DNA from: a virus
Length of the DNA: 25,891 nucleotides
Virus genome (UHGV): UHGV-1543656
Strand: one strand, 5' to 3'
Positions 404 through 20,430 of this stretch are shown here, piece by piece. A program made the position numbers and the translations under genes. Below the pieces are notes generated by a model, which saw only the letters and a program-made list of their open reading frames with translations, was not told the DNA's origin and did no database searches. The stretch's first letter is position 1. Every line of letters starts with the position of its first letter.

Positions 404-415
404 GGTCTAAATACA

Positions 416-4100: not shown

Positions 4101-4135
4101 TGTAGTATGAGTAAGAGATTTAAGGAGATTTTACA

Positions 4136-5391: not shown

Positions 5392-5415
5392 TGTTACCAA
5401 TCTGTTAAAAAGCTG

Positions 5416-5444
5416 TTGACAAATAACCTTAAGCATGACATAAT
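5416..5444 (+). promoter_or_regulatory. Sigma70-like promoter (TTGACA-17-CATAAT)
   Basis: TTGACA at 5416-5421 and CATAAT at 5439-5444 with a 17-nt spacer. Confidence 0.4.
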
Positions 5445-5450
5445 TTTAAT

Positions 5451-5645: not shown

Positions 5646-5886
5646 TTTTTAAACAGAACTTTTAAAGAAAGTTTTTCCTGAAACTTCGTTAACGTTATAA
5701 AGCAAACCTCCAAAGCCCTTCACAGATAAGGATGATTCCATGAATATCCGAATCACCTATGTTTAGGGCTTTTTCAGCTTTTAAAAAGCATACTTGGCAA
5801 ACCGCCTTTTAAGTCTCTTCTAAGTTTAGATAGGCTGTCAGGTGTGCTTTTTAAAAACTGAATATTACTTAGAAGAGGAAAATGAA

Positions 5887-6594: not shown

Positions 6595-6617
6595 TTATGA
6601 ATTAAAAGAGGTGATTA

Positions 6618-6827
6618 ATGTTTGAAGAACGTTTAGAGACTATTCGGTCTGTTTGTGAAAACTTAAAGTTACAAACTAAGCCAGCCTTAAGAATTAAAAC
6701 CAAACATCAAATTATCACCTCACGCAAACCAAAAACACGCAAGATTCCAAAGTGGTGTATCGACCGTATCCCTTCCGATGCTCAAATTATAGGTGAAACG
6801 GAACTACATTATCTTGTCAGGCATTAA
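6618..6827 (+). CDS. Small basic hypothetical protein
   Basis: Strong RBS AGAGGTGA just upstream of the ATG. Confidence 0.5.
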   Translation: MFEERLETIRSVCENLKLQTKPALRIKTKHQIITSRKPKTRKIPKWCIDRIPSDAQIIGETELHYLVRH

Positions 6828-6876
6828 AAAAGATTGGTTGGGTGTATGAGATAGGTTCTATCGAATCTATAACACG

Positions 6877-6918
6877 GGGAGAGATTATCGATATTATTCG
6901 GTAGTTTCTCCCTTTTTT
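6877..6918 (+). terminator. Terminator-like hairpin followed by a T6 run
   Basis: gggaga ... tctccc then tttttt. The loop is long, so this is uncertain. Confidence 0.35.
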
Positions 6919-6925
6919 GTATGTG

Positions 6926-6996
6926 TGCTACGTGAAATCTTCTGAACAGATATACCCACCAAAAATTATTTTTTACGTAGCTCACGCTTAACAGAG
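6926..6996 (+). promoter_or_regulatory. Conserved 71-nt cis-element, copy A, upstream of the tape-measure-domain gene
   Basis: Terminal blocks tgctacgtgaaatct and cacgcttaacagag are identical to copy B at 9071-9141, with the same 57-nt offset between blocks. Internal blocks atacccac and ttacgta are shared. Confidence 0.55.
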
Positions 6997-7010
6997 GTGA
7001 AATATGAACA

Positions 7011-9059
7011 ATGGCACAATTTAAAGTTGATAGTTTTATCGTTGAGCTAGGCTTCAGCGAGAACGTTATTAAGGGCTTGCAAAGAGTTGAAAAGGCAGCT
7101 TTGCAGTCAGCACAAAGAATTGAACGTAATTTGAATAGAGCGTTTAAGGTCGATACCAAGCAACTTGACAGCAATCTGACAAGTTCTTTAGGGCAACTTG
7201 AAAGGAAGTTTAATAAGACCTTTGACAAGATTGAGCAGCGTCTTAAAAACACTAGAGCGTTTAAGATTAAAACGGAAATTGAGGATACTTTAAAGCCACT
7301 TAGACAGCCAAGACAGCCACGAATTAGCGGCAACAGAGCAATCACAGCGGCTTATTCAGCGAATATGTCTAAGCTGAAAGGTCTTAACCCAATTGTCGAG
7401 AAATACATTAAGAGTCAGTTTTACGCATTAAGTAGTAAATCCAAGACACTTGGAAACGAAGCTTTTAATCGTGAGTTAGCAAAGTTAAATCAAAATCTAC
7501 GTGAAACACTTTCTAAGTTTAACAAGACCACCAGCAAAAATAATCACAGTGAAAATGCTTCAAATGGTTTAGATGTACTAGCTTCAAGTGCAATTAAAGC
7601 GGGTACGGCTATTTACACTTTTCAAAGTGCTTTGGCAGCTTATCAGCGAGTAATGGAAATTGGTTTACAGCGTGCAAGTGCTGAACGTTCAATTGATTTC
7701 GTATTTGATAAAGATGCAGGTCAGGTAAAAGAGTTCACAAAGTCATTAGCTCAAACAACGGGTTTAGATATCGCTGAACTGCAATCACAGTTTGCTGGTT
7801 TCGGTGCTTCAGCTAAAGAGTCTATGGGTATTCAAGGTTCTGAAGAACTTTTTAGAAGTATGATTGGCTATTCTCGTCTGATGGGTCGAAGTGAAGAAGA
7901 GATTAAGCGAGCACTGACAGCATTATCACAGATGGCTGGTAAGGGTCAGGTTATGGCTGAAGAGCTTAAGGGGCAACTAGCTGAAGCTGTTCCTGGTATG
8001 GTTCAGGTATTCGCTAAAGCAACCGGAAAGACTGAACAGGAATTATTTGATGCCATGAAGAAGGGGGCTTTAAAATCTGCCGATACTCTTCAGAAGGTCA
8101 CTCAGGAACTGAATAGACAAATCACCGCTAAAGGTGGCTGGAAAGCTATTTCAGAAAGTACACAGGCACAATTAGGGAACCTGAAAAACTCTTGGAATAC
8201 CACGCTTGATAGTATCTTCAGAGGTTCTGAAAGTGGTCTGCAAGATTTTACAAGAAGCTTAACAACGCTTTTAAACGCTCTTGGTGGAAGTGGTAAAAGT
8301 CTTGGTGAATCTCTTGGTAGCTTGATGACTGATATGTCACATGGTGTCGATAGTCTGGCCGATATTAGTTACAAGGTGCGAGCGTTCTTTGATGAGGTGA
8401 CATTAGCTTATCGTGGTTTAACCGATGAACAAAAGAAAGTTGTTGATGCTTTAGGTTCTGGCTTGATTAATAGTTTAAAAGTCTTGGCTGGTGTTATTGC
8501 TGTAAATAAAGTTGTTGGTGTAACCAGAAGTATTTACGGGCTTATGACTGCTATCACAAGATTAGGTCAGGTTGCTGATACTACAGCGGATAACGTGAAT
8601 AGAAAGAATGGGAAACCATCAAGACTGAATCTTGGGAATATGCTATTAGCTGGTAGCGCTCTCTATGCAGGTTATGAAAGACTAGCCTCTACACCTGAAC
8701 GAATGGAAGCACAAGCTAAATTACCAGAGTTAGCTAAAGAATCTGGACTTAAGCCAGTATTTACTATGGACGATGTGAAAGGTTGGTTTAATAGTGCAGC
8801 TATGAATCTTGCTAACTTCCAGCATCCAGAATTAATCACCATGAGACAAGATGCGGCATTAACGAATACGGATATCCAAAGCCTGAGAGATGAAATTAGT
8901 GCTTTGAGCAAACGTATTCAGGAGCCTGTGAAAGTTTCACTTGGTGGTGAAGTTGCCATTAAACCAGATGAAACCAGCTTTATGACCTTTAGCAGTAATA
9001 TCTACGACCAATACGCAGAAGCTACGCTATTAAGTTCATCATTCCCAGAAGATGATTGA
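7011..9059 (+). CDS. Protein with phage tail tape-measure-type domain
   Basis: 682 aa. Central segment SEEEIKRALTALSQMAGKGQVMAEELKGQLAEAVPGMVQVFAKATGKTEQELFDAMKKGALKSADTLQKV matches the tape-measure domain signature as I recall it. N-terminal part is predicted coiled coil. Confidence 0.55.
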   Translation: MAQFKVDSFIVELGFSENVIKGLQRVEKAALQSAQRIERNLNRAFKVDTKQLDSNLTSSLGQLERKFNKTFDKIEQRLKNTRAFKIKTEIEDTLKPLRQPRQPRISGNRAITAAYSANMSKLKGLNPIVEKYIKSQFYALSSKSKTLGNEAFNRELAKLNQNLRETLSKFNKTTSKNNHSENASNGLDVLASSAIKAGTAIYTFQSALAAYQRVMEIGLQRASAERSIDFVFDKDAGQVKEFTKSLAQTTGLDIAELQSQFAGFGASAKESMGIQGSEELFRSMIGYSRLMGRSEEEIKRALTALSQMAGKGQVMAEELKGQLAEAVPGMVQVFAKATGKTEQELFDAMKKGALKSADTLQKVTQELNRQITAKGGWKAISESTQAQLGNLKNSWNTTLDSIFRGSESGLQDFTRSLTTLLNALGGSGKSLGESLGSLMTDMSHGVDSLADISYKVRAFFDEVTLAYRGLTDEQKKVVDALGSGLINSLKVLAGVIAVNKVVGVTRSIYGLMTAITRLGQVADTTADNVNRKNGKPSRLNLGNMLLAGSALYAGYERLASTPERMEAQAKLPELAKESGLKPVFTMDDVKGWFNSAAMNLANFQHPELITMRQDAALTNTDIQSLRDEISALSKRIQEPVKVSLGGEVAIKPDETSFMTFSSNIYDQYAEATLLSSSFPEDD

Positions 9060-9070
9060 TAATAGTCGAA

Positions 9071-9141
9071 TGCTACGTGAAATCTGTAAAGCTAATACCC
9101 ACACTGAAAAATAGAATTTACGTACAACACGCTTAACAGAG
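9071..9141 (+). promoter_or_regulatory. Conserved 71-nt cis-element, copy B, upstream of the 264-aa gene
   Basis: See copy A. The 11-mer GCTACGTGAAA also occurs at 726-736. Confidence 0.55.
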
Positions 9142-9216
9142 AAAACACTTATATATCAAAGGCTTGGTTAAAAATGATTAAAATACACTAAGCCTTTGAA
9201 ATCAAAGGGGAATTTA

Positions 9217-9990
9217 ATGATTTACTCTAACCAAATCAAATATAGTGGCAAAGACGGCATCTATTTCCACTTAAGAGATAATGTAGATGCCTTCTTAACC
9301 TTATCAGCAACTGAAAACATGGAATTTGATAGTCCTATGCAGGTGACTACACAGAACATGCAATCAGGACAAACCGTTACAGATAATGTGCAAAGAGCAC
9401 CCAGAACAATCACTATTAGTGGTGTCGTTGTAGTTGGCTATGAAGGAAGCTTATTATTAACTCGTCAGGGTCAATTAGTAGAAAACTTCATCGACACTCT
9501 TGAAAGCTGGCGTGACCAGAAACAGATTATTTCGGTCATCTGTAAAGACGGAATTAAAATTGACGATTCCATTATTACGAGTTTTAAAGCCTCTAAAGAT
9601 GTGGGGATTTCAAACGGTCTAAGAATCCAGCTAACTTTTCAGGAAATTAACTTCAAAGCTATTGTTGGTCAGACTGATATTTCTGCTGCAACTGGAAAGA
9701 CTGCTACCACGAATGATGGTGGTGCAACTTCTAAGAAGAACACTGGTAACACTACGACAAGTCTAGGTAATGGTATGTTGCTGTGTCAGGAGCTATATAA
9801 TCGCTCTACGAGTGAACTCACTAATGAGCAACTTCAAGCCCGTATCAATTGTGGTAAAAGTGTCAAAGTTGAGAATGGAAAAAGCACCTTCTCAGATGCC
9901 GCTAATGCGCAAGCTTCAAAGGTGCTTAATAATGCTGGTACAGGTAGTACTTTGAAGAAATTTTCTGTGAATCCTAACAAGCGATTCTGA
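9217..9990 (+). CDS. Hypothetical protein, possibly virion or tail-tip associated
   Basis: Track ORF 9196..9990; start moved to the ATG at 9217 (MIYSNQ), which has an AAGGGG RBS. Beta-rich N-terminal half and a Thr/Gly/Asn-rich linker. Functional guess rests only on its position after the tape-measure-domain gene. Confidence 0.4.
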
Positions 9991-10004
9991 CGATAGAATC
10001 TCAA

Positions 10005-11528
10005 CTATATGATAACCTCATCAACATCTATCAACCCCCTCTCAGTGACTTCAGAAAGCGACTGTATAGCCTCTGTAACGTCCTCTGAGGGGGTTTCTGT
10101 TATTGGTAGGGTGATTGACTTACTATTGTGAAAAGTTACTTTACAGCGACGTTTAGCAGTATTTAAAATGACCTCTTTAACAGCACTTTTGATTATCAGT
10201 TGTGCTTCAATCCTTCCCGCCTTTGTAGTCAAGTCACAATCAGACAAACAACCAACATCAATAGATTTAAGGCGTTGTGTCTCCTTCTCGATATCCGCAT
10301 CAACCTGTGATAGCTCACCTTTTAACTGTTTTAGTTTGCTGGTAATAGCGGACAAGTCTTCAATTTCAAGTGATAGCTGTACCAGCTTTTCAATATTGCT
10401 TGAGATGTGTTCACGGTGTAGCTTCAGTGTGTCTATGGTATTCGTCATATCGCTATCAAATCGGTCTATACGGGATAGCAGGGCAAGCAATGTACCATCG
10501 GTTTGCTTACGTGAAAGTCCTTTAGCACTACAACGGTTTTCATTACGAAGAGGACAACGATAAATCCCGTTTCTTGTATCGCTAAAGCCTGTGATAATCA
10601 AAGCATGACCACATTCAGAACAACGGATAACACCTTTGAAAAGATTCACACTCAATGGTTTATCTGAAGCAGGCTTTCTTCCATAACGAGAATATGATAG
10701 TTGCTGGACTTTGTAGAAATCAGTCTCAGGGATGATAGGGGGGAAATAACCAGCTATCTCCTCACAGCCTTTAGGTGTGAAGTAACCAATTACAGAGCGA
10801 TTTTTCAGAAGGTCTTGCACTGAGGTTTGACCAAACTTACCTGCTTTGTACTGGTTAAGTGTCTGGTGACCTTCATCATTAAGAGTCCTGACAATCTCCC
10901 AAATAGACTTACCCTCTAACCGTAATTGAAAGCACCTCTTCACAGTTTCTACCTTCTCAGGTATCACAGAGAAGGTCTTACGGTCATCATTAAGCTTAAG
11001 CCATGCAGGACAACGCTTATAAATCTTGATACCGGCTTTAGCAGCTTCTTTCTTTGCATCCCATGCAGCTTGGATACGTTCAGATTTACGCAAACTCTCC
11101 TCATGCGACCGCTGCATTATCAAAATGCTTTTAATCAGAGCTAACGGGTCTTTTAAGCTTTCCTTTGTGTAATGTTCACCATCGGACAAGGTGACCACAT
11201 CTACACCAGAGCGAAGAATGTTTCTGAGTAGCTCACTTGCTTGGTCTACATCTTGACGTGACAGACGGTCAAGAGATTCTATCAAGAGCGTATCACCAGC
11301 TTTAACAAGCCCTTTCTCGATAGCGGTTAAAAAGTCACCTAAGCCACCTTTCAAGTGCTTACCAGTGAACCCACTCACCCCCAAATCACGAAAAGATAAA
11401 TCTTGGTCAAGGTAGTACTCAGGATGAGCCTTAAGCCAGTCATTAACCATCTTAGACTGTCGGCGTAATGAATCACCTCGGGATTGCTTCTCAGATGAAA
11501 ACCTGATGTAAGAAATGGCACGTTTCAT
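10005..11528 (-). CDS. Large serine recombinase (integrase)
   Basis: N-terminal resolvase-type catalytic domain (YIRFSSEKQ with the catalytic Ser, then SLDRLSR). Followed by a recombinase domain, a Cys-rich zinc ribbon (CSECGH...YRC) and a C-terminal coiled coil. Sits next to attR. Confidence 0.9.
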   Translation of the reverse strand: MKRAISYIRFSSEKQSRGDSLRRQSKMVNDWLKAHPEYYLDQDLSFRDLGVSGFTGKHLKGGLGDFLTAIEKGLVKAGDTLLIESLDRLSRQDVDQASELLRNILRSGVDVVTLSDGEHYTKESLKDPLALIKSILIMQRSHEESLRKSERIQAAWDAKKEAAKAGIKIYKRCPAWLKLNDDRKTFSVIPEKVETVKRCFQLRLEGKSIWEIVRTLNDEGHQTLNQYKAGKFGQTSVQDLLKNRSVIGYFTPKGCEEIAGYFPPIIPETDFYKVQQLSYSRYGRKPASDKPLSVNLFKGVIRCSECGHALIITGFSDTRNGIYRCPLRNENRCSAKGLSRKQTDGTLLALLSRIDRFDSDMTNTIDTLKLHREHISSNIEKLVQLSLEIEDLSAITSKLKQLKGELSQVDADIEKETQRLKSIDVGCLSDCDLTTKAGRIEAQLIIKSAVKEVILNTAKRRCKVTFHNSKSITLPITETPSEDVTEAIQSLSEVTERGLIDVDEVII

Positions 11529-11578
11529 TGTTCACCTCAAAACTGATGCCCTAGATTGTATCGTTTTAGATGGTGTAT

Positions 11579-11980
11579 TTAAACGTGTCTAATAAAAATC
11601 ACCCGATTAACGCCGCGCTGATGTAAACCGCGATTAAGCGTTTGTTCCTCTTCCCCTTTGGCGAAAAACTGTGGATGGCGGACTTCCACCCCATAATTAA
11701 ATTCACCGGGAAGAGAATCGAGAAAATGCCAAAGCGCAGGCAGCTCCCGTGGGCCGAATGTGGCAGGCAGTTGCAGCCAGTATTGTCCAATGCGCGGAGC
11801 CAACGGTGACATGCGGGTCAAAAATTCAGTCACTAAATCATCGCAATGCCGTAATGCTGCCTGATGCGAAATGGTCGCCGGAAACTTAAAACAGAAGCGG
11901 AAGTCATCTGTGGTCTGCTCACGCCAGCGCAGGACAACCTCGGGTTTCGGCAGGGCATAAAGCGTGGTGTTACCCTCCAC
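11579..11980 (-). pseudogene. yecE: 5'-proximal fragment of the host DUF72-family gene, truncated at its 5' end by the prophage and at its 3' end by the serine-integrase element
   Basis: Track ORF starts at a GTG. The in-frame upstream sequence has no ATG back to a stop at about 12038. NCVEGNTTLYALP matches the conserved N-terminal motif of DUF72 proteins. It continues in frame into 53..403 once the insertion is removed. Confidence 0.6.
11595..11601. repeat. attR core (AAAATCA) of the serine-integrase element
   Basis: Junction read aataAAAATCAcccgatt: element sequence to the left, host sequence to the right. Confidence 0.6.
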
Positions 11981-12006: not shown

Positions 12007-13320
12007 TTAACTTACTGATTTTAATAAGCCTCTGGTGTCACTTTGGTGACTATGGGGCATCATTGGGACATAATCTGTCAGCTTCTGATTCAGCATTGCG
12101 ATCTGTTCTGCATTGCTGTCAGTCATCCATGCTCCGTATACATTGAATACCATCTGGGCACTTGCATGGCCCATCTGGCTGGCAATGAAGCTTGGGTTTG
12201 CTCCGGCAGATAATGACCAGCACGCATAAGTGTGTCGTGACTGGTATGCCTTTCGATGCCTGATCCCTGCACGCTTAATGGCTGTTTCCCATGAGTCACC
12301 TACAGAATCGACTTTGTAGACAAAACCTACCTGTTCGCTTTTTCTAACCACTTGAGGGTTAAACACGAAAGTACATTCATGGTTCACTGAACGTCCATAT
12401 TCACGTAGTTGCACCTTGATGTTGTACTGCTTACCCAGTCTTGTCATTTCAGCCTGATTTTTCAGGACACTGATAGCGGGCTGGATAAGGTGCACAACCC
12501 TGTTTGTGCTTGCTTCAGTTTTCGGTAGAGTGAACTCACCAAGTTTCGTATAATTGCGCCTGATGGTAATTGTTCCTGCCTTCAGATCGATATCTTCCCA
12601 GGCCAGGGAGACCAGTTCACCGTGACGCATTCCTGTGTACACAGCCAATGACCACAGGTTTTTCGTCTGCTGATGTCGGCAAGCATCTATCAGGCGAATA
12701 AATTCGTCACGAGTTAGCGGATCTGGCTCTGCCCTGGCTCTTTTAAGAGGCTTAATTCCCTGGAAGGGATTTGCTTCTAAGTAACCGTGATCTGCAGCAA
12801 ACTGAAACATTCCAGCGATTGTCGTCATGTAATAATTTACAGTAACGACGCTCCGTCCTTTTGCTGCTGCTTTGTTTTTCGTTGAATTCTGATACCCGGT
12901 CAGCAAATCTTTCCTGATATACAGCAATTCCTCTTTGGTTACCGATGACACCAGTTTACTGCCTCCAATTTTCGGAACCATCGTTCTTGCAACGGATTCA
13001 TAGCGATTGAATGCATTTGCAGAGATTTCCATTCGTTTCAGATCCAGCCACTTTTCTTCAAGTTCCTTCACCGTAATTTCTTTTTTACTTACCCCAAAAG
13101 CCTGAAGGTTGGGGGAGTCAGGGAACTGTGCAGCATAATCAAAGCTTCCTGTGCGGATGGCAAAACATACTGATGTCCGCAGTTCCCCGGCGATCTTCCT
13201 GTTCTTGGCAGTGTCAGGGACACCAAGATTTTCCCTGACACGTTTACCTTTAAAATTAAACCAGATGCGTAATGTGCCGCCGTGGTTTTCGACGCCTGTT
13301 GGATATTTGACTTTATCCAT
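12007..13320 (-). CDS. int: Tyrosine-type phage integrase
   Basis: C-terminal catalytic region HRKAYQSRHTYACWSL...GHASAQMVFNVYGAWM carries the R..HxxR..Y signature. Located at the prophage end next to xis. Confidence 0.9.
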   Translation of the reverse strand: MDKVKYPTGVENHGGTLRIWFNFKGKRVRENLGVPDTAKNRKIAGELRTSVCFAIRTGSFDYAAQFPDSPNLQAFGVSKKEITVKELEEKWLDLKRMEISANAFNRYESVARTMVPKIGGSKLVSSVTKEELLYIRKDLLTGYQNSTKNKAAAKGRSVVTVNYYMTTIAGMFQFAADHGYLEANPFQGIKPLKRARAEPDPLTRDEFIRLIDACRHQQTKNLWSLAVYTGMRHGELVSLAWEDIDLKAGTITIRRNYTKLGEFTLPKTEASTNRVVHLIQPAISVLKNQAEMTRLGKQYNIKVQLREYGRSVNHECTFVFNPQVVRKSEQVGFVYKVDSVGDSWETAIKRAGIRHRKAYQSRHTYACWSLSAGANPSFIASQMGHASAQMVFNVYGAWMTDSNAEQIAMLNQKLTDYVPMMPHSHQSDTRGLLKSVS

Positions 13321-13375
13321 CGATACCTCCAGACGCCCAAGAGCGATACGAGCTTACATATTTCATGATATTAAA

Positions 13376-13612
13376 TCACCTGGGTTGTTTGTTTTTCATT
13401 GAGGCGACCCAGGCATCTATTGCTTTTCTGTTATACATACATTCACTGGAAGGCTTTGGATTACCGTCTGGTGATACGTGAATATACTCTCTTCCAACCA
13501 TCCAGCATTCTTTCCGGGCCCGAAGAATTGTGCCTGGTTTGAGCCCGGTAATTGCGATAAGAACGCTTTCACAAACCCATTCATTGGGAGCCAGTTGAAT
13601 CACATTGCCCAT
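13376..13612 (-). CDS. xis: Excisionase-like protein
   Basis: 78 aa, immediately upstream of int. WVCESVLIAITGLKPGTILRARKECWMVGREY resembles the small excisionase family of E. coli lambdoid prophages. Confidence 0.7.
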   Translation of the reverse strand: MGNVIQLAPNEWVCESVLIAITGLKPGTILRARKECWMVGREYIHVSPDGNPKPSSECMYNRKAIDAWVASMKNKQPR

Positions 13613-13620
13613 GTATTACC

Positions 13621-13767
13621 TCACACAACACTCAGCCCACGGCAGTGGCACCACACTTCAAACATTCGTTTCACAATTTCACGACAGTAGAAGCCGTCAA
13701 CATCTCGCGTCAGGTCATAGCGATTGCCGTAACGCTGGCGCACCCATAGCTCAAACGCTTTATTCAT
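13621..13767 (-). CDS. 48-aa Cys-rich small protein (MNKAFELWVRQRYGNRYDLTRDVDGFYCREIVKRMFEVWCHCRGLSVV)
   Basis: Below the track cut-off. AAGGAAG RBS 6 nt upstream. Its stop overlaps the xis RBS (GTGTGAGGTAATACATG). Confidence 0.4.
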   Translation of the reverse strand: MNKAFELWVRQRYGNRYDLTRDVDGFYCREIVKRMFEVWCHCRGLSVV

Positions 13768-13770
13768 TCT

Positions 13771-14010
13771 TTACTTCCTTTTCATGGCCCGTAATTTTTT
13801 CAGATGAGCCTCCTGCTCTGTTTCTGCCAGAATTTGTCGGTATTCCTGGTGATCAATCCGTTCAAACAGTTCATTGAAATCGTTTATTTTTACTGACTGT
13901 GTTCGCCCATCAATTCTTCTGTACAACACAGTGTTGTTTATGCAGCGAATAATTATTACCGGGTAACCGGCACTGTCGGTATACAGTTGTCCCTGATTAA
14001 TCAAAGCGAA
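13771..14010 (-). CDS. Hypothetical protein
   Basis: Track ORF 13771..14136; start moved to the internal ATG (MFALINQ) with an AGGAG RBS, which removes the overlap with the upstream gene. Confidence 0.5.
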   Translation of the reverse strand, partial: FALINQGQLYTDSAGYPVIIIRCINNTVLYRRIDGRTQSVKINDFNELFERIDHQEYRQILAETEQEAHLKKLRAMKRK

Positions 14011-14044
14011 CATTTTTTCTCCTGCTCTCTGAATAGTGAGAACT

Positions 14045-14350
14045 TCAGAGCCGTATGTTTGTAGCGGGTTCAATACTGATAATTTCTGCTGAGATAAGCA
14101 TCCCGGCAAGCCAGAGCTCTCCGGACAGGTCTTCATCCTGGCATGTCAGTTCGCCAATATTAATGGTGGCCATGATATCTGTTTCCCCTGTACGCTCATC
14201 CTCGACTTCTTCATAAGGCAGCGTTGCGTACAGGCTTTCAATAGCGCAACTGATAACATCGAGTCCGGTCAGGTTGCCACCGACAGTGACTTCGAATGTT
14301 TCGCGGTATTCCCATTGCCCGAAAGTTAATCGAACGGTTTGTTTCGCCAT
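14045..14350 (-). CDS. Acidic hypothetical protein
   Basis: Track ORF 14045..14386; start is likely the internal ATG at 14350 (MAKQTV). Confidence 0.45.
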   Translation of the reverse strand: MAKQTVRLTFGQWEYRETFEVTVGGNLTGLDVISCAIESLYATLPYEEVEDERTGETDIMATINIGELTCQDEDLSGELWLAGMLISAEIISIEPATNIRL

Positions 14351-14457
14351 GCGTCCGCATGACGTCAGATTTGGGTCATAGTTCATTATTTGCGGTTGAG
14401 TATTATGAGTGTTTATCTGCTTTTCCCTTAGCCCGACGGCCTGCCGGGCATATTAAG

Positions 14458-15285
14458 TTATTTAACCTGGATAAATGGTGTATTGGCACCGCTGGTCATG
14501 TATTGCGGCAGCGTGCCGTTCCATTTATTGATGGCTTCCAGCTCCATAACACCGGGGTTCTGACGCAGAGCTTCACCGCGTAAACGAATAGCATCGGCTT
14601 CAGCCTGGGCTTTTGTGCGAATCGCATCAGCCTGTCCGGCAGCTTCCGCGCGCAACATGTTGGCTTCCGCTTCGCGCTGTTTTACTTCCTGCTCGCGTTG
14701 CAGAGTTTTCTGGTTCGCCGTGACTTTGGCATTAATGCTGTCGATAACAGTAGGCGGGTACTCCGGCTTACCCACATATGAGAGGCTTATTACCTGAATA
14801 CCGATGGGCGTCATTTCTTCCTGAATGTCTTTAAGAGCTGCATCCAGCAGCTCAGACTTGCCGCCGTCGATAAATTTGTCGGTGGTCATTTTGCTGGCCA
14901 GTCGGTTGAGTGCGTCGGCTATCTTCTGGCGCAGGTCGGTGTCGGTAATGTCGTCCACGCCTTTGCGGTAGGTCTGAAAGACTGTGGTAACTTTGGATGG
15001 ATCAACCTTGTAGGCTACTCCGATGTGGTAACCAATGGTTGTTCCATCGCTCATCTGGAAACTGAATGGATCATCGTAGGTCTTCATCTGCTTAAAGGTC
15101 GGGAAGATATAAACTTCAGTGTTCCAGCCTGTCCAGTAGCGACCAACACCGACCACTTCACCGACGCCTTTGTCGTCGCCAAGTTTGTTGACTTTGATGC
15201 CCACATTACCAGGCTCAACACGATCACAACCGACAAGGCCAATGGCAGGCAGAACAATGGCTAAAGAAAAAATAATTTTTTTCAT
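14458..15285 (-). CDS. SPFH/band-7 (prohibitin-family) lipoprotein
   Basis: Signal peptide with lipobox LVGC. SPFH-like core beginning VEPGNVGIKV, followed by an Ala/Glu/Arg-rich helical tail. AAGGA RBS. Confidence 0.75.
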   Translation of the reverse strand: MKKIIFSLAIVLPAIGLVGCDRVEPGNVGIKVNKLGDDKGVGEVVGVGRYWTGWNTEVYIFPTFKQMKTYDDPFSFQMSDGTTIGYHIGVAYKVDPSKVTTVFQTYRKGVDDITDTDLRQKIADALNRLASKMTTDKFIDGGKSELLDAALKDIQEEMTPIGIQVISLSYVGKPEYPPTVIDSINAKVTANQKTLQREQEVKQREAEANMLRAEAAGQADAIRTKAQAEADAIRLRGEALRQNPGVMELEAINKWNGTLPQYMTSGANTPFIQVK

Positions 15286-15470
15286 CTTTTATCCTTAGTG
15301 AAAGAAAGCCCCTTATAAATGGTATAAATACATGGCGGGGTTAGAAACGTCAGTGCAAAGCCAGAAATCACCGCTACCGTATCCTTCATTGATATCAGAA
15401 ACGGGACGAGCAATCCGTAAATACATGCGATAATTGCCAGTGATATAACTATTCTGAAATAAATGTTCAT
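15282..15470 (-). CDS. Small membrane protein (two predicted TM helices), translationally coupled to the SPFH gene
   Basis: AGGAGG RBS. Its stop overlaps the SPFH start codon (ATGA). Confidence 0.6.
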   Translation of the reverse strand: MNIYFRIVISLAIIACIYGLLVPFLISMKDTVAVISGFALTFLTPPCIYTIYKGLSFTKDKR

Positions 15471-15530
15471 GGTCCTCCTGCTGTATTCAGCTTGCCTTAT
15501 TTAATTGCGTCATGGTTAATTTCGTTTACG

Positions 15531-15923
15531 TCAGAATGGTTTTGTTGCCATCAGTTCGTAATATCCGGCGCTCCATGTGTCATATTTTCTGAACCATTTT
15601 TCTGTATACTGTTTCCTGGCGATGAGTCTGCGCAGTCGTCTGATTGTTCGCTGGTGTGCGCGGGTGTACTCTGTGGTTGATTCTCCACGTTTCCATATTT
15701 CATTCCCGTTGAAGATAAAACGCTTGTCAGGATGGCGTTGTCGGAATCCTGAACGTTCAAAAGCGCGGGTGGTCATAAAGAATGCCAGGTAACGAATTGC
15801 CGTTTTTCGAGTGAGGCATTTTTTTGTTCTTCCGTGATGTGTTACAAAAAATAACGGGCCGACGGGTGTATCATGTTTCTGTAATGCCTGGTCAATGGCG
15901 CTGGCGGTGCGGTTGTCGATCAT
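15531..15923 (-). CDS. Basic hypothetical protein
   Basis: Track ORF; Arg/Lys-rich C-terminal half; sits inside the leftward operon. Confidence 0.45.
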   Translation of the reverse strand: MIDNRTASAIDQALQKHDTPVGPLFFVTHHGRTKKCLTRKTAIRYLAFFMTTRAFERSGFRQRHPDKRFIFNGNEIWKRGESTTEYTRAHQRTIRRLRRLIARKQYTEKWFRKYDTWSAGYYELMATKPF

Positions 15924-16138
15924 TTCTTTATTTCTCCCGAATAACGTTCATGACTCATTATTTCCCAGTTCCGGCCGTCGTCTTTCGATAACAGCCGCCA
16001 GCGACGGTTAACCTTCAGACTGAGATATCCGTTGCGCTGTATCCGATGCGGGAATATACGTCGGCATCTGTACCGCCGCAGGACCAGCAACGCCTGCTGG
16101 TGGACCCACTCAGGAATTCGCGTTGCTGTTAATGTCAC
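15920..16138 (-). CDS. Hypothetical protein (uncertain)
   Basis: Stop overlaps the downstream start (ATGA). Arg-rich, and its 5' end overlaps the upstream gene. Confidence 0.3.
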   Translation of the reverse strand: MTLTATRIPEWVHQQALLVLRRYRCRRIFPHRIQRNGYLSLKVNRRWRLLSKDDGRNWEIMSHERYSGEIKK

Positions 16139-16325
16139 TGGTTTCCTCCTGAGCAGGTGCTGTTATCTGATACCCCGCTCTTTCTGCCAGCCATATGAAT
16201 GTATCCATGCTGGCAATCAGCTCTCCATCGCGGACTTTGCAGACATCTGTTACCTGGCCATTTTCAATTGTCATAACGATCTGCACTTTTTCGTGCACAA
16301 CAGATACAGGGGATAAATTAGCCAT
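16110..16325 (-). CDS. Hypothetical protein
   Basis: GGAGG RBS. Start overlaps the upstream stop (TGATG). Confidence 0.5.
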   Translation of the reverse strand: MANLSPVSVVHEKVQIVMTIENGQVTDVCKVRDGELIASMDTFIWLAERAGYQITAPAQEETSDINSNANS

Positions 16326-16684
16326 CAGTTAATTCCTCCGCTGATATATTTTTCTTTCGCGTAATCAATAACCTCTTGTAAAAGGTTGTCTATAATTAAC
16401 TTTCCGGTTTCAGCCTGGTATTCAGTATGTTGATTAATCCCGATGGCATTCTGGTATGCAGTTCGGAATTCTGTTTCACCCTCCACTCGACCCAATTCAC
16501 CACGGGTAATATCTTCAAAGCGCAACAGCAACTGGTTTATAAACTGTTCTGTTATTTCTATGGTCGTAATGTTCCCATCCAGAAGGTCAACAATAAGCAG
16601 ATCACCACCTGTTTTACGTTTTATTCGATGGAGTGCTGCAACAGCTATACGGCGACGATATGTATTAATGGGTTCATGTGTCAT
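16325..16684 (-). CDS. Hypothetical protein
   Basis: Track ORF within the coupled leftward operon. Confidence 0.5.
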   Translation of the reverse strand: MTHEPINTYRRRIAVAALHRIKRKTGGDLLIVDLLDGNITTIEITEQFINQLLLRFEDITRGELGRVEGETEFRTAYQNAIGINQHTEYQAETGKLIIDNLLQEVIDYAKEKYISGGIN

Positions 16685-16687
16685 TTG

Positions 16688-16801
16688 TTATTTCCCGTAT
16701 GCTTTACGCAGAAATAAGCAGGCAATATGCATGTAATTTTCACCGTATTGTGCAATAAGACAGGCGGTCTTGTGTGATGCCATATTCTTTATAAAAGTCA
16801 T
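16688..16801 (-). CDS. 37-aa small protein (MTFIKNMASHKTACLIAQYGENYMHIACLFLRKAYGK)
   Basis: Below the track cut-off. Strong CAGGAGGA RBS 7 nt upstream. Its stop lies 3 nt before the next start. Confidence 0.35.
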   Translation of the reverse strand: MTFIKNMASHKTACLIAQYGENYMHIACLFLRKAYGK

Positions 16802-16879
16802 AATAAATCCTCCTGTGGATTAAGATTGTAACAATCCCCGGCGATAAAACCGCAATAAACGTTCAGAGCATATTTGTTG

Positions 16880-17245
16880 TTATTGCGCTAATTCTTTTTC
16901 GGCAGCAGTTTTTGCATACTCACATGCAAAATTCAGAATTTCGCTGCCGAGTGTTTTCGTTTCGTGATTACTGGACATATGTAATACCTGTGTTGCATGC
17001 AATAAATGATAAACATTTACCGCAAATGAATCAGGCTCCAGACAAATGCCTTCGTAATTATCTTGCTGTGAGGTTGTTTCTGTCATTGCTTCTGAAGTGC
17101 ATGCGAGCCTGTTTTTGACAATTCTCTTTCCTCTAATCACTATATCGGCAACATCTATTGCCTTTACAACCTCCGGGAGAAGTTCCGGGTTTGTATAATC
17201 AAAGTCATCAACATGGAGAACAGTTATGTTTTCGAACTTTTTCAT
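16880..17245 (-). CDS. Hypothetical protein
   Basis: Track ORF in the leftward operon. Confidence 0.5.
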   Translation of the reverse strand: MKKFENITVLHVDDFDYTNPELLPEVVKAIDVADIVIRGKRIVKNRLACTSEAMTETTSQQDNYEGICLEPDSFAVNVYHLLHATQVLHMSSNHETKTLGSEILNFACEYAKTAAEKELAQ

Positions 17246-17424
17246 GGCTTCCTCAGCTGACTTATATGTCCTGCTATATAGCGAGTCTCAGAAGTGTTTT
17301 CATATTGAGACTGTTTCCGCAATGATTGATAATCAGTTACCGGATGCTTATCCGTGTCCGGCGCACGACCACACGTAGCCGCGTGTTGGTCCCCATTTTC
17401 AATTCAGCTCTCAATGGAGGATAA

Positions 17425-17652
17425 ATGATTAACGCAGAGCAACTCGAAAAAGAGATTTCAGAACTCAAAAAAGAATTAATTTGGCACAAAGTTGCTATCT
17501 CCGCATTAATTCGTCAGGTAGTTTCACCTGAAGATAAAGTAAAGTTTATGAAGCAGTTCTCATCTTCATCAAAGGAGTTTTTCACTGACGAGGTTCATCC
17601 AGAGGCTGGATTTTGGATCCGTCAATTATTTTCGCAAGATAAGCGTAAATAG
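17425..17652 (+). CDS. Hypothetical protein on the opposite strand to the surrounding operon
   Basis: Strong GGAGG RBS 5 nt upstream. Its 3' end overlaps the 3' end of the convergent gene 17582..17823 by about 70 nt. Confidence 0.45.
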   Translation: MINAEQLEKEISELKKELIWHKVAISALIRQVVSPEDKVKFMKQFSSSSKEFFTDEVHPEAGFWIRQLFSQDKRK

Positions 17653-17823
17653 CGTCATCAATACTCGCGTCGCTCTTGAATTTAAGAGCGATGCTCTTTA
17701 TATCCTCTGAAATTATTACCAGATCACCATATGTTATATTTTTATTATTGCGCGCAGTGCTTTTTTGTATGAAATCAAGCAATTCACCAATGAGACAAAT
17801 ATGGTAAGCATCACAGTTTTTCA
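17582..17823 (-). CDS. Hypothetical protein
   Basis: Track ORF 17582..17866; start moved to the internal ATG (MKNCDAY), which overlaps the upstream stop (ATGA). Confidence 0.4.
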
Positions 17824-18237
17824 TGCGCAGATATCCTTTGCTGCCGTTTCGCCAGTTAACAGCCACATCGGATCGCAGCCAAGAATATTTGCCAGTGGGA
17901 TAAGCATACTGATAGTTGGTTCATACTCTCCGCTCTCCCACTGGATGATAATTTCTTCATCGAGATCGAGCAGCCTGGCGAGTTCGGCGGTTGTTAAGCC
18001 GCAGGCTTCGCGTTGGGTGCGAAGACGGTTGTTGATTGCAGAATTTTTGTTCTGTAAAAGCATTGCTGACGATAGCTTTCTGGATATGCTATTTGTCATA
18101 TCCCATGCCAGTCCTGCGCATGACTCTATATCGCTAGAGAGCGTAGCATCAGGTGTTGCTTTTGCTATTAGTGTAATGAGGCTGCCGAGGTTTTTCAGTT
18201 CTTCGAGACAGTCAAGAGTTGTAGCTTTATTGATCAT
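17821..18237 (-). CDS. HTH (XRE-type) DNA-binding protein, first gene of the leftward early operon
   Basis: C-terminal half ...EACGLTTAELARLLDLDEEIIIQWESGEYEPTISMLIPLANILG is a classic XRE helix-turn-helix. It occupies the position that gene N holds in lambda. Confidence 0.6.
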   Translation of the reverse strand: MINKATTLDCLEELKNLGSLITLIAKATPDATLSSDIESCAGLAWDMTNSISRKLSSAMLLQNKNSAINNRLRTQREACGLTTAELARLLDLDEEIIIQWESGEYEPTISMLIPLANILGCDPMWLLTGETAAKDICA

Positions 18238-18241
18238 GAGA

Positions 18242-18320
18242 TGATACCTCAGTTACGAACTTTGTTTTATGGTAACTAAGGTATCAAGGTGTGGCAAGTG
18301 ATTTTTGATACTTTGGTTTC
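18242..18320. promoter_or_regulatory. Left operator/promoter region (OL/PL-like)
   Basis: Three sites of the GATAC-N3/4-GT(A/T)AC / TTGATACTTTGG family at about 18242-18256, 18272-18286 and 18305-18316, matching the sites to the right of cI. Confidence 0.5.
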
Positions 18321-18340
18321 TTTTTGTGTTTTGTGTCTGG

Positions 18341-18997
18341 TTAGAAAATATCCCACCTGGCATCAACCACAACACCTACTATTTCGCAATCATTGTCCAT
18401 TTCTATGATTGGATATTGTGGATTAAGGGGCTTTAGAAACGCCTTTCCCATTTCAGAAATATATTTTTTGAATGTTGCTTCATTGGTAGATTTTTTTCTG
18501 GCGATGACGTAACACCCTGAAAAAACTTCTTTATCTGGGTTGACAAGGATCGACATTCCTTCAGGAAATGTTATTCCTACGGGCGAAGTCATTGAGTCTC
18601 CGTGCACTTCCAGCCAGAACCCCCTCTCACCAGCGTATTTTACAGAATGCCTCCAATTATCCTGATCATACATGTTGTAGTCATCACCAGAAGTTGCGAA
18701 TAATCCTGCCTGAACCCAGTTAATTACAGGGTAAGAGTATGCTGTGTCTCTCTGTGGGCAGCTCTTAACATTATTTTCCCAATGCTTATCTTTTTCATCT
18801 CCGTTCTGAAGCCACTGCGGTGAACACTGCAGTGCAGCTGCAACTTTAAAAAGGGTGTCACCGTTGAAACTTTTTGTAAGGCCTTGCTCGGCTTTACTGA
18901 TTGCAACTCTGGTGACCCCAGCTTTTTTAGCCAACGCATCTTGTGTTAACCCAGCTTTTTGCCGTGCGTTGATGAGACGTTCACCTAAAGACTTCAT
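18341..18997 (-). CDS. cI: CI-like phage repressor (HTH plus S24 LexA-type autopeptidase domain)
   Basis: N-terminal HTH (LTQDALAKKAGVTRVAISKAEQG). C-terminal S24 fold with GDSM and a conserved Lys (VIARKKS). Start placed at the ATG at 18997 (MKSLGER) with a GAGAGGAGAAG RBS; the track start at 19072 would lie inside the operator region. Confidence 0.85.
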   Translation of the reverse strand: MKSLGERLINARQKAGLTQDALAKKAGVTRVAISKAEQGLTKSFNGDTLFKVAAALQCSPQWLQNGDEKDKHWENNVKSCPQRDTAYSYPVINWVQAGLFATSGDDYNMYDQDNWRHSVKYAGERGFWLEVHGDSMTSPVGITFPEGMSILVNPDKEVFSGCYVIARKKSTNEATFKKYISEMGKAFLKPLNPQYPIIEMDNDCEIVGVVVDARWDIF

Positions 18998-19017
18998 TTT
19001 TCTTCTCCTCTCATGGC

Positions 19018-19095
19018 TGTTGATACTAAAGTAACAGAATTTCTTGATACTTTGGGTTCCTGTGGTTAACATCGTTGGATAACAAAGTATCTGGT
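19018..19095. promoter_or_regulatory. Right operator/promoter region (OR/PR-like)
   Basis: Operator sites tGATACtaaaGTAAC (19021-19035), TTGATACTTTGG (19044-19055) and GATAACaaaGTATC (19078-19092). Rightward promoter TTGATA (19044-19049), 17-nt spacer, TAACAT (19067-19072). Confidence 0.55.
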
Positions 19096-19108
19096 GTGAG
19101 ACTAAAGA

Positions 19109-19336
19109 ATGACCCTTTATGAAATATTAAAAATTCAATTTAAAACCAATGCCGCTATTGGTCGCAGGTTCCCAAAGAAAGGAAGGCCTCGTGGCAGTCA
19201 AGGTGTTGGAAAGTGGAAAACGCGAGGTGTTCCGGAGGATGTTGCCATTCTTTGTCATCTGGATACGAGCATTCCATATACACACCCAAGTCTAGCGAAT
19301 ACAGAAGATGACAAGCCCACAGGAGACCAACAATGA
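19109..19336 (+). CDS. Hypothetical basic protein at the cro position
   Basis: First rightward ORF after the predicted PR. No recognisable HTH and a weak RBS, so the call is tentative. Confidence 0.35.
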   Translation: MTLYEILKIQFKTNAAIGRRFPKKGRPRGSQGVGKWKTRGVPEDVAILCHLDTSIPYTHPSLANTEDDKPTGDQQ

Positions 19337-20040
19337 ACACCGCAATTTTTAACGGCAAAGCATCCATGACCAGCGTTGAAATTGCAGAGCTGGTGGGTAA
19401 ACGTCATGACAATGTGAAACGCACTATTGAAACATTAGCCAAAGGTGGCGTTGTCCGGTCTCCTCAAATTGAGGTTTCCGAAAGAATCAATAACTTAGGT
19501 TTTAAAGTTCAATATGAGCATTACCTGTTTGAAGGAGAACAAGGTAAGCGCGACAGCATCATTGTCGTCGCACAGCTCTGTCCTGAATTCACTGCTCGCC
19601 TGGTAGATCGCTGGCGCGAACTGGAAGAACAGATCCGTAAGCCAATGAGCGAAATCGAAATGGTTGCCGCGATGGCTCTTGAAGCAGTTCGTCAGCAGAA
19701 ACGGATCACTCAGGTGGAAGAAAAAGTCAGCCACGTTGCTGAAACAGTCGAGCAAATTAAAAAGGGCACTATTCGTGAGGGCTATGCCGGATATCGCCAA
19801 CTGAAAGCAAAAACCGGTTTGTCAGATGATAAATGCCGCAATCTGGTGAACGCCTATCAGATTCCTACAGACACCCATGAGTTCATGACGCCGGACGGAT
19901 TGTTGTCACGTCGCGCAATTGTTGCTGTGGAACCGTTTATGGCTGCTTTTTATCGGGTTATGGAGGAAGCAGAACCGCGAGGGACTCGCTGGTATCACCC
20001 GAAAATGGGGTTATTTCAGGTTATTGGTTGGCAGCGGTGA
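19333..20040 (+). CDS. Rha-family phage regulatory protein
   Basis: N-terminus MTSVEIAELVGKRHDNVKRTIETL matches the Rha domain signature. Confidence 0.7.
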   Translation: MNTAIFNGKASMTSVEIAELVGKRHDNVKRTIETLAKGGVVRSPQIEVSERINNLGFKVQYEHYLFEGEQGKRDSIIVVAQLCPEFTARLVDRWRELEEQIRKPMSEIEMVAAMALEAVRQQKRITQVEEKVSHVAETVEQIKKGTIREGYAGYRQLKAKTGLSDDKCRNLVNAYQIPTDTHEFMTPDGLLSRRAIVAVEPFMAAFYRVMEEAEPRGTRWYHPKMGLFQVIGWQR

Positions 20041-20066: not shown

Positions 20067-20314
20067 CTCAACATCAATAACGGGGAGCTGTTTCGCATAA
20101 AACGGCTCCGAAACATCCAAGAACAGTTCTAAAGATATCAGCAGCTATATGATCATTTCAAGACCAAATATTGATTCTGCAATTTCGGGACGTTACACTG
20201 TCTCCGCACCTTATAAAGCGGGTGCCGGGATTGGCGTCCTGAAATTGATTACTGAGCATAACCGCGCTCATGCGGTTTTTTCGTGTCATGAGCATTGCTA
20301 CGCCCAAATTATGG

Positions 20315-20430
20315 TGGGGCGTACAGGGCCGACTTCGGTCGGGCCGGGTTCGGTAGTCTCCGGTAACGCCAACCCTGTACGTCTCACCACCTCTGTGATT
20401 GGCGTCCCATGTGGTGAGTTTTCTAAAAAA
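20315..20430 (+). promoter_or_regulatory. Structured GC-rich leader RNA upstream of the second Rha gene
   Basis: Hairpin with a cUUCGg tetraloop (gggccgacTTCGgtcgggcc, 20326-20345) enclosed by a long-range stem gcgtacaggg/ccctgtacg (20319-20329 with 20373-20381). Terminator-like stem ctcaccac/gtggtgag plus TTTTCT at 20384-20424, about 30 nt before the ATG at 20452. Confidence 0.4.

Follow-up and report, generated by a model that had tools for sequence, protein, structure and literature searches.

A phiP27-type prophage of Escherichia coli with a probable patchwork of exchangeable modules on the pL side of its repressor gene

Introduction

What does a lambdoid prophage encode between its repressor gene cI and its excisionase gene xis when the N gene and the recombination genes familiar from phage lambda cannot be recognized there? 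The question is raised by UHGV-1543656, a virus genome sequence of 25,891 nucleotides (nt) that was analyzed at its full length and is referred to here as the window. In this sequence, a block of minus-strand genes extends from 18237, the ATG of a gene for a helix-turn-helix (HTH) protein of 138 amino acids (aa), to 13621, the stop codon of a 48-aa open reading frame (ORF). The original prediction for this locus described a leftward early operon of more than twelve small unknown genes in place of lambda N and the recombination functions. The boundaries of the block, 13621-18237, proved exact, and 13 minus-strand ORFs are present between cI and xis, 11 of which are annotated by RefSeq in an identical genome. 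In our reading, the block is probably the pL-side accessory region of a phiP27-type prophage inserted in yecE, a patchwork of independently exchanged modules.

Results

A phiP27-type prophage with one module swapped

The window is a piece of Escherichia coli chromosome with a phiP27-type lambdoid prophage in yecE. Over 13300-19400, it matches the chromosome of E. coli JNEC-KY173 at 100% identity; there, the RefSeq annotation shows fragments of yecE (DUF72) on both sides of the insertion. Among 5,426 complete genomes of E. coli, 22 contain at least 80% of this region and 1,454 contain parts of it. The best phage match is the Stx2e phage phiP27, a phage type sequenced in 2002, with 79% coverage and 93.8% DNA identity. 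The ORF order L01-L05 and L08-L12 is common to both, such that DNA identity, synteny and integration in yecE all place the prophage in the phiP27 type, the module at 15462-16687 being the part that is not in common. The RefSeq annotation of the JNEC-KY173 prophage includes genes for a tyrosine integrase, an excisionase, a LexA-type repressor, Rha/Ant, the Q antiterminator and lysis, as well as O-like, DnaC-like and DnaB-like replication genes, the P27-family small terminase and head genes.

The early-left region of phiP27 (L03-L10; AJ298298 / NC_003356) has the same integrase, excisionase and yecE context and, in the same order, the 48-aa ORF, L03 (DUF4222), L04 (DUF5406), L05 (SPFH), L08, the L09 locus, L10, cI and cro. 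The differences are that phiP27 carries L06 and L07 where the window has genes for a 130-aa, a RelE/ParE-fold, a 71-aa and a 119-aa protein (15462-16687), and that the plus-strand gene, intact in the window (75 aa), is frameshifted in phiP27; the 37-, 62- and 80-aa ORFs lack annotation in the phiP27 record. By its sequence, then, the region is not new: it corresponds to phiP27 L03-L10 with one 1.2-kb module swapped, and its gene content is already in public phage records.

A leftward unit under cI control without a recognizable N system

The 103-bp gap between cI and the HTH gene contains three copies of the operator motif TGATACnnnnGTWAC (18242-18256, 18272-18286 and 18306-18320), and the gap between cI and cro contains one exact copy at 19021 and weaker copies at 19044 and 19078. 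The window has four exact matches, all in the gaps flanking cI, against 0.56 expected, and none of 100 shuffles reaches four. Among the operators lies a promoter-like sequence, TTGCCA-17-TACCAT (18297-18269), whose predicted start is only about 25 nt from the first ATG, so that there is no room for a nutL-type site upstream of the first gene. These features support the view that the block is a leftward early transcription unit that would start at a cI-controlled promoter and end at xis and int. The tight coupling of genes proposed for the block is readily seen: five junctions overlap, three of them as ATGA (17824-17821, 15923-15920 and 15285-15282), one as TGATG (16325) and one over 29 nt (16110-16138), and two gaps measure 3 nt (16685-16687 and 13768-13770). 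Of the predicted leftward early operon, the promoter with its cI operators and the xis/int end stand, but the series of genes is interrupted by the plus-strand 75-aa gene at 17425-17652.

In profile searches against Pfam, PHROGs and NCBIfam, no ORF matched the N, Exo, Bet/RecT/Erf, Gam, Kil or cIII families, and none was assigned to a well-characterized lambdoid early-left family. RefSeq annotates none of these functions, and no recombinase gene, in the early region of the identical genome, and no nutL (boxA plus boxB) was found, the single boxA-like 9-mer being at chance level. The failure to recognize N, nut sites, exo, bet, gam or kil in the original prediction is therefore borne out at the level of both protein families and nut sites. 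The consensus scan from pL to int produced a single terminator-like site on the minus strand, a weak one (13972-13957), which, together with the translational coupling, suggests that an N-type antiterminator would not be needed. An exact match to the lambda boxA consensus, CGCTCTTAA, is located at 17682-17690 on the minus strand, inside the complement of the plus-strand terminator hairpin; shuffled sequences contain 0.33 such matches on average, 28 of 100 have at least one, and the match has no boxB-like partner.

The block resembles the lambda pL operon (N, ral, sieB, cIII, kil, gam, bet, exo, xis, int) in its position to the left of cI, the repeated operators, the direction and the distal xis and int. 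Unlike lambda, the window has no homologs of N, Red, Gam, Kil or cIII, no nutL and no long leader, contains only the one weak terminator-like site, and opens with a DNA-binding regulator where lambda has an RNA-binding antiterminator. In lambda, sieB is an oppositely oriented, lysogen-type gene inside the pL operon, comparable to the plus-strand gene of the window. For P27, it has been reported that N, cII and cIII are not identifiable and that many lambdoid regulatory elements are missing (Smith et al. 2012, PMC3430580).

Status of the individual ORFs

The coordinates and family assignments of the genes are given in Table 1. The first gene encodes an XRE-type HTH protein, as had been proposed, and the two ORFs below the original size cut-off that were credited with strong ribosome-binding sites (RBS) are those of 37 and 48 aa. 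The characterization of the genes as small and unknown applies to part of the set: one protein, of the SPFH type, has 275 aa, and a family or fold can be assigned to the SPFH/HflK-like, RelE/ParE, XRE, DUF5406 and DUF4222 proteins, the rest being largely uncharacterized. Likewise, the description of some products as Cys-rich is weak, with 3 Cys in the 48-aa protein and 2 Cys in the 37-aa protein.

Compared with P27, the 37-aa ORF differs at 31 of 114 nt; codon position 3 accounts for 18 of these differences, and only 9 aa changes result. The ORF is annotated in Stx1_14040 and PhiR49_2 although not by RefSeq in the identical genome; judging by this substitution pattern, it is a real gene. The 80-aa ORF at 17582-17824 is open in 12 of 12 sequence variants, with 7 of 14 substitutions at codon position 3 (p 0.15), which leaves its coding status undecided. 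In the identical genome, RefSeq calls neither the 37-aa gene nor the 80-aa ORF and gives L08 a length of 68 aa instead of 121.

Three short sequences in or next to these genes were also examined. Upstream of the 37-aa ORF, TGTTACAAT was considered as an extended -10 internal promoter and dismissed, being absent from P27, Stx1_14040, Stx2_12E129 and PhiR49_2. In the intergenic segment between L08 and the 37-aa gene (16802-16879, minus strand), the sequence CGG(T/C)TT(T/A)ATCGCCGGGGATT is kept in P27, the Stx1/Stx2 phages and PhiR49_2 while the flanking bases vary. Immediately after the stop codon of the SPFH gene, at 14431-14449 on the minus strand, there is a GC-rich hairpin, GCCCGGCAGGCCGTCGGGC, that is not followed by a T run and could be an RNA stabilizer or a processing site.

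An opposite-strand cassette behind a conserved leader

The 336-nt gap between the minus-strand ORFs (17246-17581) holds a gene on the plus strand. In the part of this gene that is free of overlap, codon position 3 accounts for 12 of 15 substitutions (p 3e-4), clearly the pattern of a coding sequence. Gene L09 of phiP27 (L002, NC_003356, 5106-5285) is a frameshifted copy with a 1-nt insertion after codon 14, and the copy in the related contig L020 is intact. In comparison with PhiR49_2, the 516 bp at 17333-17848 form an indel that starts exactly at the start of a leader of about 87 nt preceding the plus-strand gene.

The leader is widespread. At 82-92% conservation, it is present in about 1,100 of the 5,426 complete E. 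coli genomes, in one to four copies each, including O157:H7, and it is unannotated in the records inspected, among them those of O157:H7. Divergence amounts to 2.3% in the leader versus 9.8% in the ORF. Among 147 instances in viral contigs, there are 37 distinct leader sequences followed by at least 10 unrelated families of cargo proteins of 57-101 aa. No function is known for any of these families, and for one of them a GhoS-like match below threshold was obtained. In each of several different upstream sequences, a -10-like hexamer precedes the first conserved base of the leader by 4-6 nt, and backbone similarity stops at the start codon of the cargo gene and resumes several hundred bases downstream. 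The leader is always oriented against the leftward prophage operon. In O157:H7 SS17 and ATCC 25922, leftward operons of the dicB type (Qin/Rac-like prophages) contain it in antisense orientation, in front of 69-aa and 64-aa ORFs that are unrelated to the 75-aa protein: the arrangement there, with the same leader in opposite orientation between dicB and a DUF1391 gene and then a small ORF, matches that in the window, whereas the upstream promoter sequence and the backbone genes differ.

The proposed structure of the leader comprises, besides two hairpins, a third helix formed by CUCCAUU and the AAUGGAG of the Shine-Dalgarno (SD) region. Against shuffled sequences, the fold has z of -2.4 to -2.6 on the plus strand and about -1 on the minus strand (-0.9 in the window). 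Across the leader copies, 93.8% of cells are paired, compared with 26-47% when the partners are slid, and helix 2 includes two pairs with compensatory changes, a level that 8 of 500 shuffles reach. We read the leader as a transcript-initial RNA that would mask the RBS in front of a hypervariable slot for small genes. Tentatively, the sequence at 17338-17424 may mark a widespread kind of cassette site, so far undescribed, in the lambdoid prophages of E. coli that combines this RBS-masking RNA with a slot for at least 10 unrelated proteins, a proposal that we consider plausible although short of probable. Weighing against it, support for the structure is modest, given that the copies are 90% identical, that two pairs covary and that the search patterns fixed part of the stems.

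Searches with the Rfam 15 covariance models produced no match to the leader at the gathering score and nothing relevant up to E 5 in 16700-18400, the isrK and C4 models matching only elsewhere in the window. Literature searches with the leader sequence and the RefSeq protein accessions had no match, and a scan of a collection of species-representative genomes found no genuine copy and one spurious match. Two other roles for this segment were considered and set aside. Hairpin 2 is unlikely to form an intrinsic terminator with its U run, which stands four bases away from the stem and is missing from common variants. An Arg-rich peptide of 19 aa encoded across the leader on the minus strand (MGTNTRLRVVVRRTRISIR) was examined as an N-like motif, and its frame is broken in the ATCC 25922-type variant.

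A RelE/ParE-fold protein that moves with two uncharacterized families

The genes for the 130-, 72-, 71- and 119-aa proteins at 15462-16687 make up exactly the part that is replaced in phiP27, and they travel as a unit in 105 E. coli genomes. The 72-aa protein matches PF24732 (ParE_like) with 63.7 bits at a cut-off of 24.4, all of its homolog clusters (56/56) carry PF24732, and it shows the helix and antiparallel sheet of the RelE/ParE fold, with R48, H63, E64 and Y66 conserved; the closest known systems are the type II toxin-antitoxin systems of the RelE/ParE superfamily (RelBE, HigBA, YefM-YoeB, ParDE and PaaA2-ParE2). Of eight contexts, six have a homolog of the 119-aa gene immediately 5' of the ParE-like gene, namely those in Kosakonia, Aeromonas phage AsXd-1, Rahnella, Edwardsiella and two contigs. 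The homolog of the 130-aa gene lies 3' of the ParE-like gene in most contexts and 5' in one. In contig L172, the order is permuted. Genes of the 119-, ParE- and 130-like families occur together in Kosakonia, Rahnella, Edwardsiella, the Klebsiella phage, the Aeromonas phage and contig L173. The 130-aa family (phrog_1886) comprises 206 clusters, and all of its named members come from Enterobacterales.

Considering these contexts, the most economical guess is that the three families form a unit with a toxin-antitoxin or abortive-infection role, in which the 119-aa protein would be the likelier candidate for the antitoxin. Three observations weaken this assignment. Salmonella prophages have 118-, 65- and 135-aa genes without the toxin-like gene; in the window, the 71-aa gene separates the putative antitoxin from the toxin; and profile and structure searches with the 119-aa family detected no Pfam or PDB relative and no antitoxin or DNA-binding domain. 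The model of the 130-aa protein (predicted local distance difference test score, pLDDT, of 75, with the N-terminal 32 residues conserved and of low confidence) has no fold match.

The 71-aa (phrog_340) gene is situated between the 119-aa and ParE-like genes in the window and in the Klebsiella phage. Its product was considered as a dedicated antitoxin and rejected, the gene being missing in Kosakonia, the Aeromonas phage, Rahnella, Edwardsiella and two more contexts and present in Salmonella without the toxin-like gene. At the 29-nt overlap (16110-16138), the gene upstream of the ParE-like gene ends in an acidic tail, …SD(T/I)NS…, in the window, the Klebsiella phage and AsXd-1. This tail is shared by the upstream genes because it is the 5' region of the ParE-like gene read in another frame, and it therefore marks the recombination junction of the toxin-like gene.

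A mobile pair with an SPFH lipoprotein

The 275-aa protein contains an SPFH/Band 7 domain (PF01145, 109.3 bits at a cut-off of 23.6, residues 22-208), and its nearest solved relative is HflK (E 2e-4). The HflK/HflC equivalog level is not reached, with 26 bits for TIGR01932 (cut-off 134) and 24 bits for TIGR01933 (cut-off 159). Its sequence includes a lipobox, LVGC, followed by Asp at +2 (MKKIIFSLAIVLPAIGLVGC-DRV), which fits [LVI][ASTVI][GAS]C. Asp at +2 is the rule for the retention of lipoproteins in the inner membrane, so that the lipobox and this residue together predict an inner-membrane anchor with the SPFH domain in the periplasm. The protein resembles HflK/HflC and other bacterial SPFH proteins in the succession of an SPFH domain and a charged, Ala/Glu-rich, helical C-terminal part and in its predicted periplasmic, membrane-anchored topology; it differs from them in that the anchor is predicted to be a lipid-modified Cys rather than a transmembrane helix. 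The 62-aa membrane protein encoded upstream is ATGA-coupled to the SPFH gene. It is not an NfeD-type partner, having no Pfam match and being too short for NfeD, so that, by comparison with known SPFH systems, the partner in the window is a two-helix membrane protein in place of NfeD or a second SPFH paralog. A further difference is that the gene is carried by phages and moves between lambdoid, P2-like and P1-like types: a lambdoid phage of Klebsiella and the early operon of the P2-like P88 also contain the pair, and P1-like elements contain the SPFH gene alone. Given this recurrence, the pair behaves as a mobile two-gene module.

The first-gene regulator and L08

The 138-aa regulator consists of an N-terminal helical domain of about 65 aa and one C-terminal XRE HTH; its nearest solved relative is the DNA-binding domain of the P22 C2 repressor, and it is 93% identical to P27 L10. 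The orthologous regulator of Stx1/Stx2 phages with the same repressor region has 215-216 aa and two tandem HTHs, and that of PhiR49_2 has 182 aa and an N-terminal domain homologous to the C-terminal half of L08 (E 3.5e-9). A comparison of 17821-18237 of the window with 5906-6556 of L005, 4962-5609 of L004 and 6190-6738 of L006 reveals three architectures of the pL-proximal regulator: an N-domain with one HTH (window, P27), the same N-domain with two HTHs (Stx1/Stx2) and an L08-like N-domain with one HTH (PhiR49_2). The short form, with its shortened C-terminus, coincides with the insertion of the 516-bp cassette. Only the C-terminal approximately 65 aa of L08 are kept in relatives, and in Stx phages this part is a stand-alone protein of 66 aa. 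The domain fusion in PhiR49_2 suggests that L08 and the regulator may work together. The N-terminal domain of the window L10 was also examined as a paralog of the C-terminal half of L08 and dismissed at an hhalign probability of 0.1%, so that the relationship to L08 is confined to the N-terminal domain of the PhiR49_2 regulator.

Neighboring elements

Beside the prophage, a second inserted element of lower GC content (35-41%) splits yecE at approximately 400-11600. It carries a serine recombinase gene at 10005-11528 on the minus strand, and RefSeq annotates a large serine recombinase, tape-measure and baseplate proteins and a DNA adenine methylase; it could represent either a satellite or the remnant of another prophage, arranged in tandem with the P27-like prophage. 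In the rightward operon, between two Rha/antirepressor genes, the Rfam models identify on the plus strand isrK (59 bits, 20206-20282) and the C4 antisense RNA (82 bits, 20307-20394), an antirepressor control element of the P1/P7 type in a lambdoid immunity region.

Table 1 Features of the pL-side region and its surroundings in the window
Feature	Position	Strand	Evidence or description
int	12007-13320	-	tyrosine integrase; same strand as block
xis	13376-13612	-	DUF1233 excisionase; same strand as block
48-aa ORF adjoining xis	13621-13767	-	RBS AAGGAAG; phrog_3871 E 5.7e-36; annotated in RefSeq
DUF4222 protein (P27 L03), 80-aa form	13771-14013	-	PF13973 E 1.2e-15, phrog_285; RefSeq start 14013
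113-aa DUF5406 protein (P27 L04), acidic	14045-14386	-	PF17400 E 1.2e-22
275-aa SPFH/Band 7 lipoprotein (P27 L05)	14458-15285	-	PF01145 E 2.9e-31; phrog_200 'lipoprotein'
62-aa membrane protein	15282-15470	-	two hydrophobic segments; phrog_1130 'membrane protein'
130-aa basic protein	15531-15923	-	ATGA-coupled to 72-aa gene; phrog_1886
72-aa RelE/ParE-fold protein	15920-16138	-	GTG start, RBS AGGAGG; PF24732
71-aa protein (P27 L07 homolog)	16110-16325	-	phrog_340
119-aa protein	16325-16684	-	phrog_1737
37-aa ORF	16688-16801	-	RBS AGGAGG; substitution pattern vs P27
121-aa protein (P27 L08)	16880-17245	-	phrog_5451 E 1.7e-82
Promoter-like TTGAGA-17-GATAAT	17305-17333	+	-10 hexamer ends 5 nt before leader
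Structured 5' leader, ~87 nt	17338-17424	+	hairpin 1, hairpin 2, anti-SD segment
75-aa cargo gene (RefSeq WP_000606214)	17425-17652	+	RBS GGAGG; phrog_20080 E 1.4e-46
80-aa ORF	17582-17824	-	ATG overlaps HTH stop (ATGA); phrog_23054 E 7e-58
Terminator-like hairpin	17667-17694	+	12 pairs and T-rich tail; complement carries CGCTCTTAA on operon strand
138-aa XRE HTH protein (phiP27 L10)	17821-18237	-	PF01381 E 2.5e-11; phrog_4739 E 2.6e-84
oL/pL region	18238-18340	-	three operators and promoter-like site
cI	18341-18997/19072		Peptidase_S24 and HTH

Discussion

If the block is the pL-side accessory region of a phiP27-type prophage, transcription would start at the promoter overlapped by the three cI operators, reach the first gene after about 25 nt and run leftward through mostly coupled genes to xis and int without an N-type antiterminator. 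Along the way, it would traverse six putative modules: the XRE regulator L10, with longer relatives that contain an additional HTH or another N-terminal domain; the inserted 516-bp opposite-strand unit of promoter, leader, 75-aa gene and terminator, whose expression, for instance in the lysogen, probably does not depend on pL; L08 with the conserved 37-aa protein; the 119-aa, RelE/ParE-fold 72-aa and basic 130-aa proteins, joined here by the 71-aa protein, as a toxin-antitoxin-like or abortive-infection unit; the 62-aa membrane protein with the HflK-like SPFH lipoprotein, which would be anchored in the inner membrane and face the periplasm; and the DUF5406, DUF4222 and 48-aa genes adjoining xis. 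What was observed directly comprises the map of genes and operators, the assignment to families and folds, and the boundaries and distribution of the modules, and comparison with the relatives indicates that the genes are separate exchangeable modules and not a single co-evolved set. Two considerations weigh against parts of this scheme. Rho-dependent termination in the untranslated stretch 17246-17581, or collision with the convergent plus-strand unit, could split the 'operon', and the search of PADLOC-DB v2 with 10 of the proteins (all except the HTH, 80-, 75- and 37-aa proteins) returned only one match, a chance-level one of 14 bits.

The latter result bears equally on the alternative that the block, or most of it, is a prophage-borne island of defense and exclusion genes whose position in the pL operon is incidental. 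Under this explanation, the RelE/ParE module would serve abortive infection, the SPFH protein and its partner would block superinfection at the envelope, and the cassette would provide an exclusion protein expressed in the lysogen. The RelE/ParE fold itself is in line with such an island, and so is the distribution of the SPFH gene, which accompanies its partner in the Klebsiella lambdoid phage and P88 and stands alone in P1-like elements, a pattern that a moron would show. The same holds for the plus-strand unit, which has a separate promoter and terminator and lies away from any cI operator, and for the hypervariability of the cargo slot, a property that defense and counter-defense loci often have. 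However, apart from the lack of a PADLOC model match, most of the genes have no promoter of their own and are located behind the repressed pL, so that they would be silent in the lysogen, and the internal promoter that was considered for the 37-aa ORF has no conserved counterpart in relatives. We hold this explanation to be rather unlikely. We infer the transcription pattern of the patchwork itself, along with any biological role that its modules might have in exclusion or defense, membrane remodeling or the tuning of lysis and lysogeny. The last of these roles is central to another explanation, by which the SPFH lipoprotein would stand in for lambda cIII by altering FtsH-HflKC and the other genes would be passengers. 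In lambda, cIII is a pL gene that acts on FtsH, and HflK/C are membrane-anchored with a periplasmic SPFH domain, the topology predicted for the lipoprotein from its lipobox and Asp at +2. HflK as the nearest solved relative, along with the weak equivalog matches, fits this scenario, as does the lack of cIII in P27, but the similarity to HflK is weak and confined to the generic SPFH core, a homolog of cII, the relevant FtsH substrate, is not known in P27 (PMC3430580), and the same gene is found in P2-like and P1-like phages with different lysogeny circuits, all of which makes a stand-in for cIII improbable.

It is quite improbable, too, that an antitermination function is present in a form that escapes recognition, with an RNA element or the product of the first gene replacing N. 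The candidates would be the boxA-like sequence on the operon strand (17682-17690), which is one exact match to the consensus in the leftward direction, and the two-hairpin leader acting like the put RNA of HK022. HK022 is a lambdoid phage without N that uses two-stem RNAs of about 70 nt, beginning at the start site of the promoter (PMC9378689), and the leader, which is similar in size and layout, likewise begins at a predicted transcription start. Nevertheless, the boxA match is at chance level, inside a hairpin and without boxB; the leader has no sequence similarity to the pL/pR region of HK022, and, whereas a put-type RNA acts on its own early transcript, it is located on the strand opposite to the early operon, folds better on that strand and ends in the SD sequence, with which it pairs, and the start codon of plus-strand genes. 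This orientation and the SD pairing fit translational control of the downstream gene and not modification of the polymerase, and with one weak terminator-like site on the operon strand there would be little to overcome. Finally, the block might be decaying DNA of a cryptic prophage, with the ORFs largely non-functional remnants, considering that the prophage is adjacent to a second inserted element in a disrupted yecE, that some ORFs lack RefSeq annotation and that the cargo gene is frameshifted in the phiP27 reference. This explanation is barely credible given that many genomes carry every ORF intact, at 94-100% identity, that the 37- and 75-aa genes show codon-position signs of purifying selection, that nearly all ORFs belong to PHROG families of the same length, that phiP27 is an isolated phage (AJ298298) and that replication, lysis and head genes are completely represented in the RefSeq annotation.

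Returning to the patchwork of modules, the early-left finding as such adds little because the region had already been sequenced in phiP27 and the lack of N, cII and cIII is in print (PMC3430580). Its value is that of a map, which specifies the real ORFs (the 37-aa and the plus-strand 75-aa genes, the 80-aa ORF being uncertain) and the boundaries of the exchangeable modules and traces a RelE/ParE-fold gene that moves with two uncharacterized families across prophages of Enterobacterales. The main lead is the leader with its variable cargo slot, present in about one-fifth of the complete E. coli genomes; this opposite-strand cassette had no place in the original prediction. If the proposal holds, the orientation of the slot against the pL-type operon would allow the cargo to be produced in the lysogen or in response to a specific signal, and the leader transcript would also be antisense to the early-left mRNA. 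Such a layout would suit a site for swapping superinfection-exclusion, defense or counter-defense genes under a shared RNA switch and would offer a testable entry to the small proteins of prophages and their regulation.

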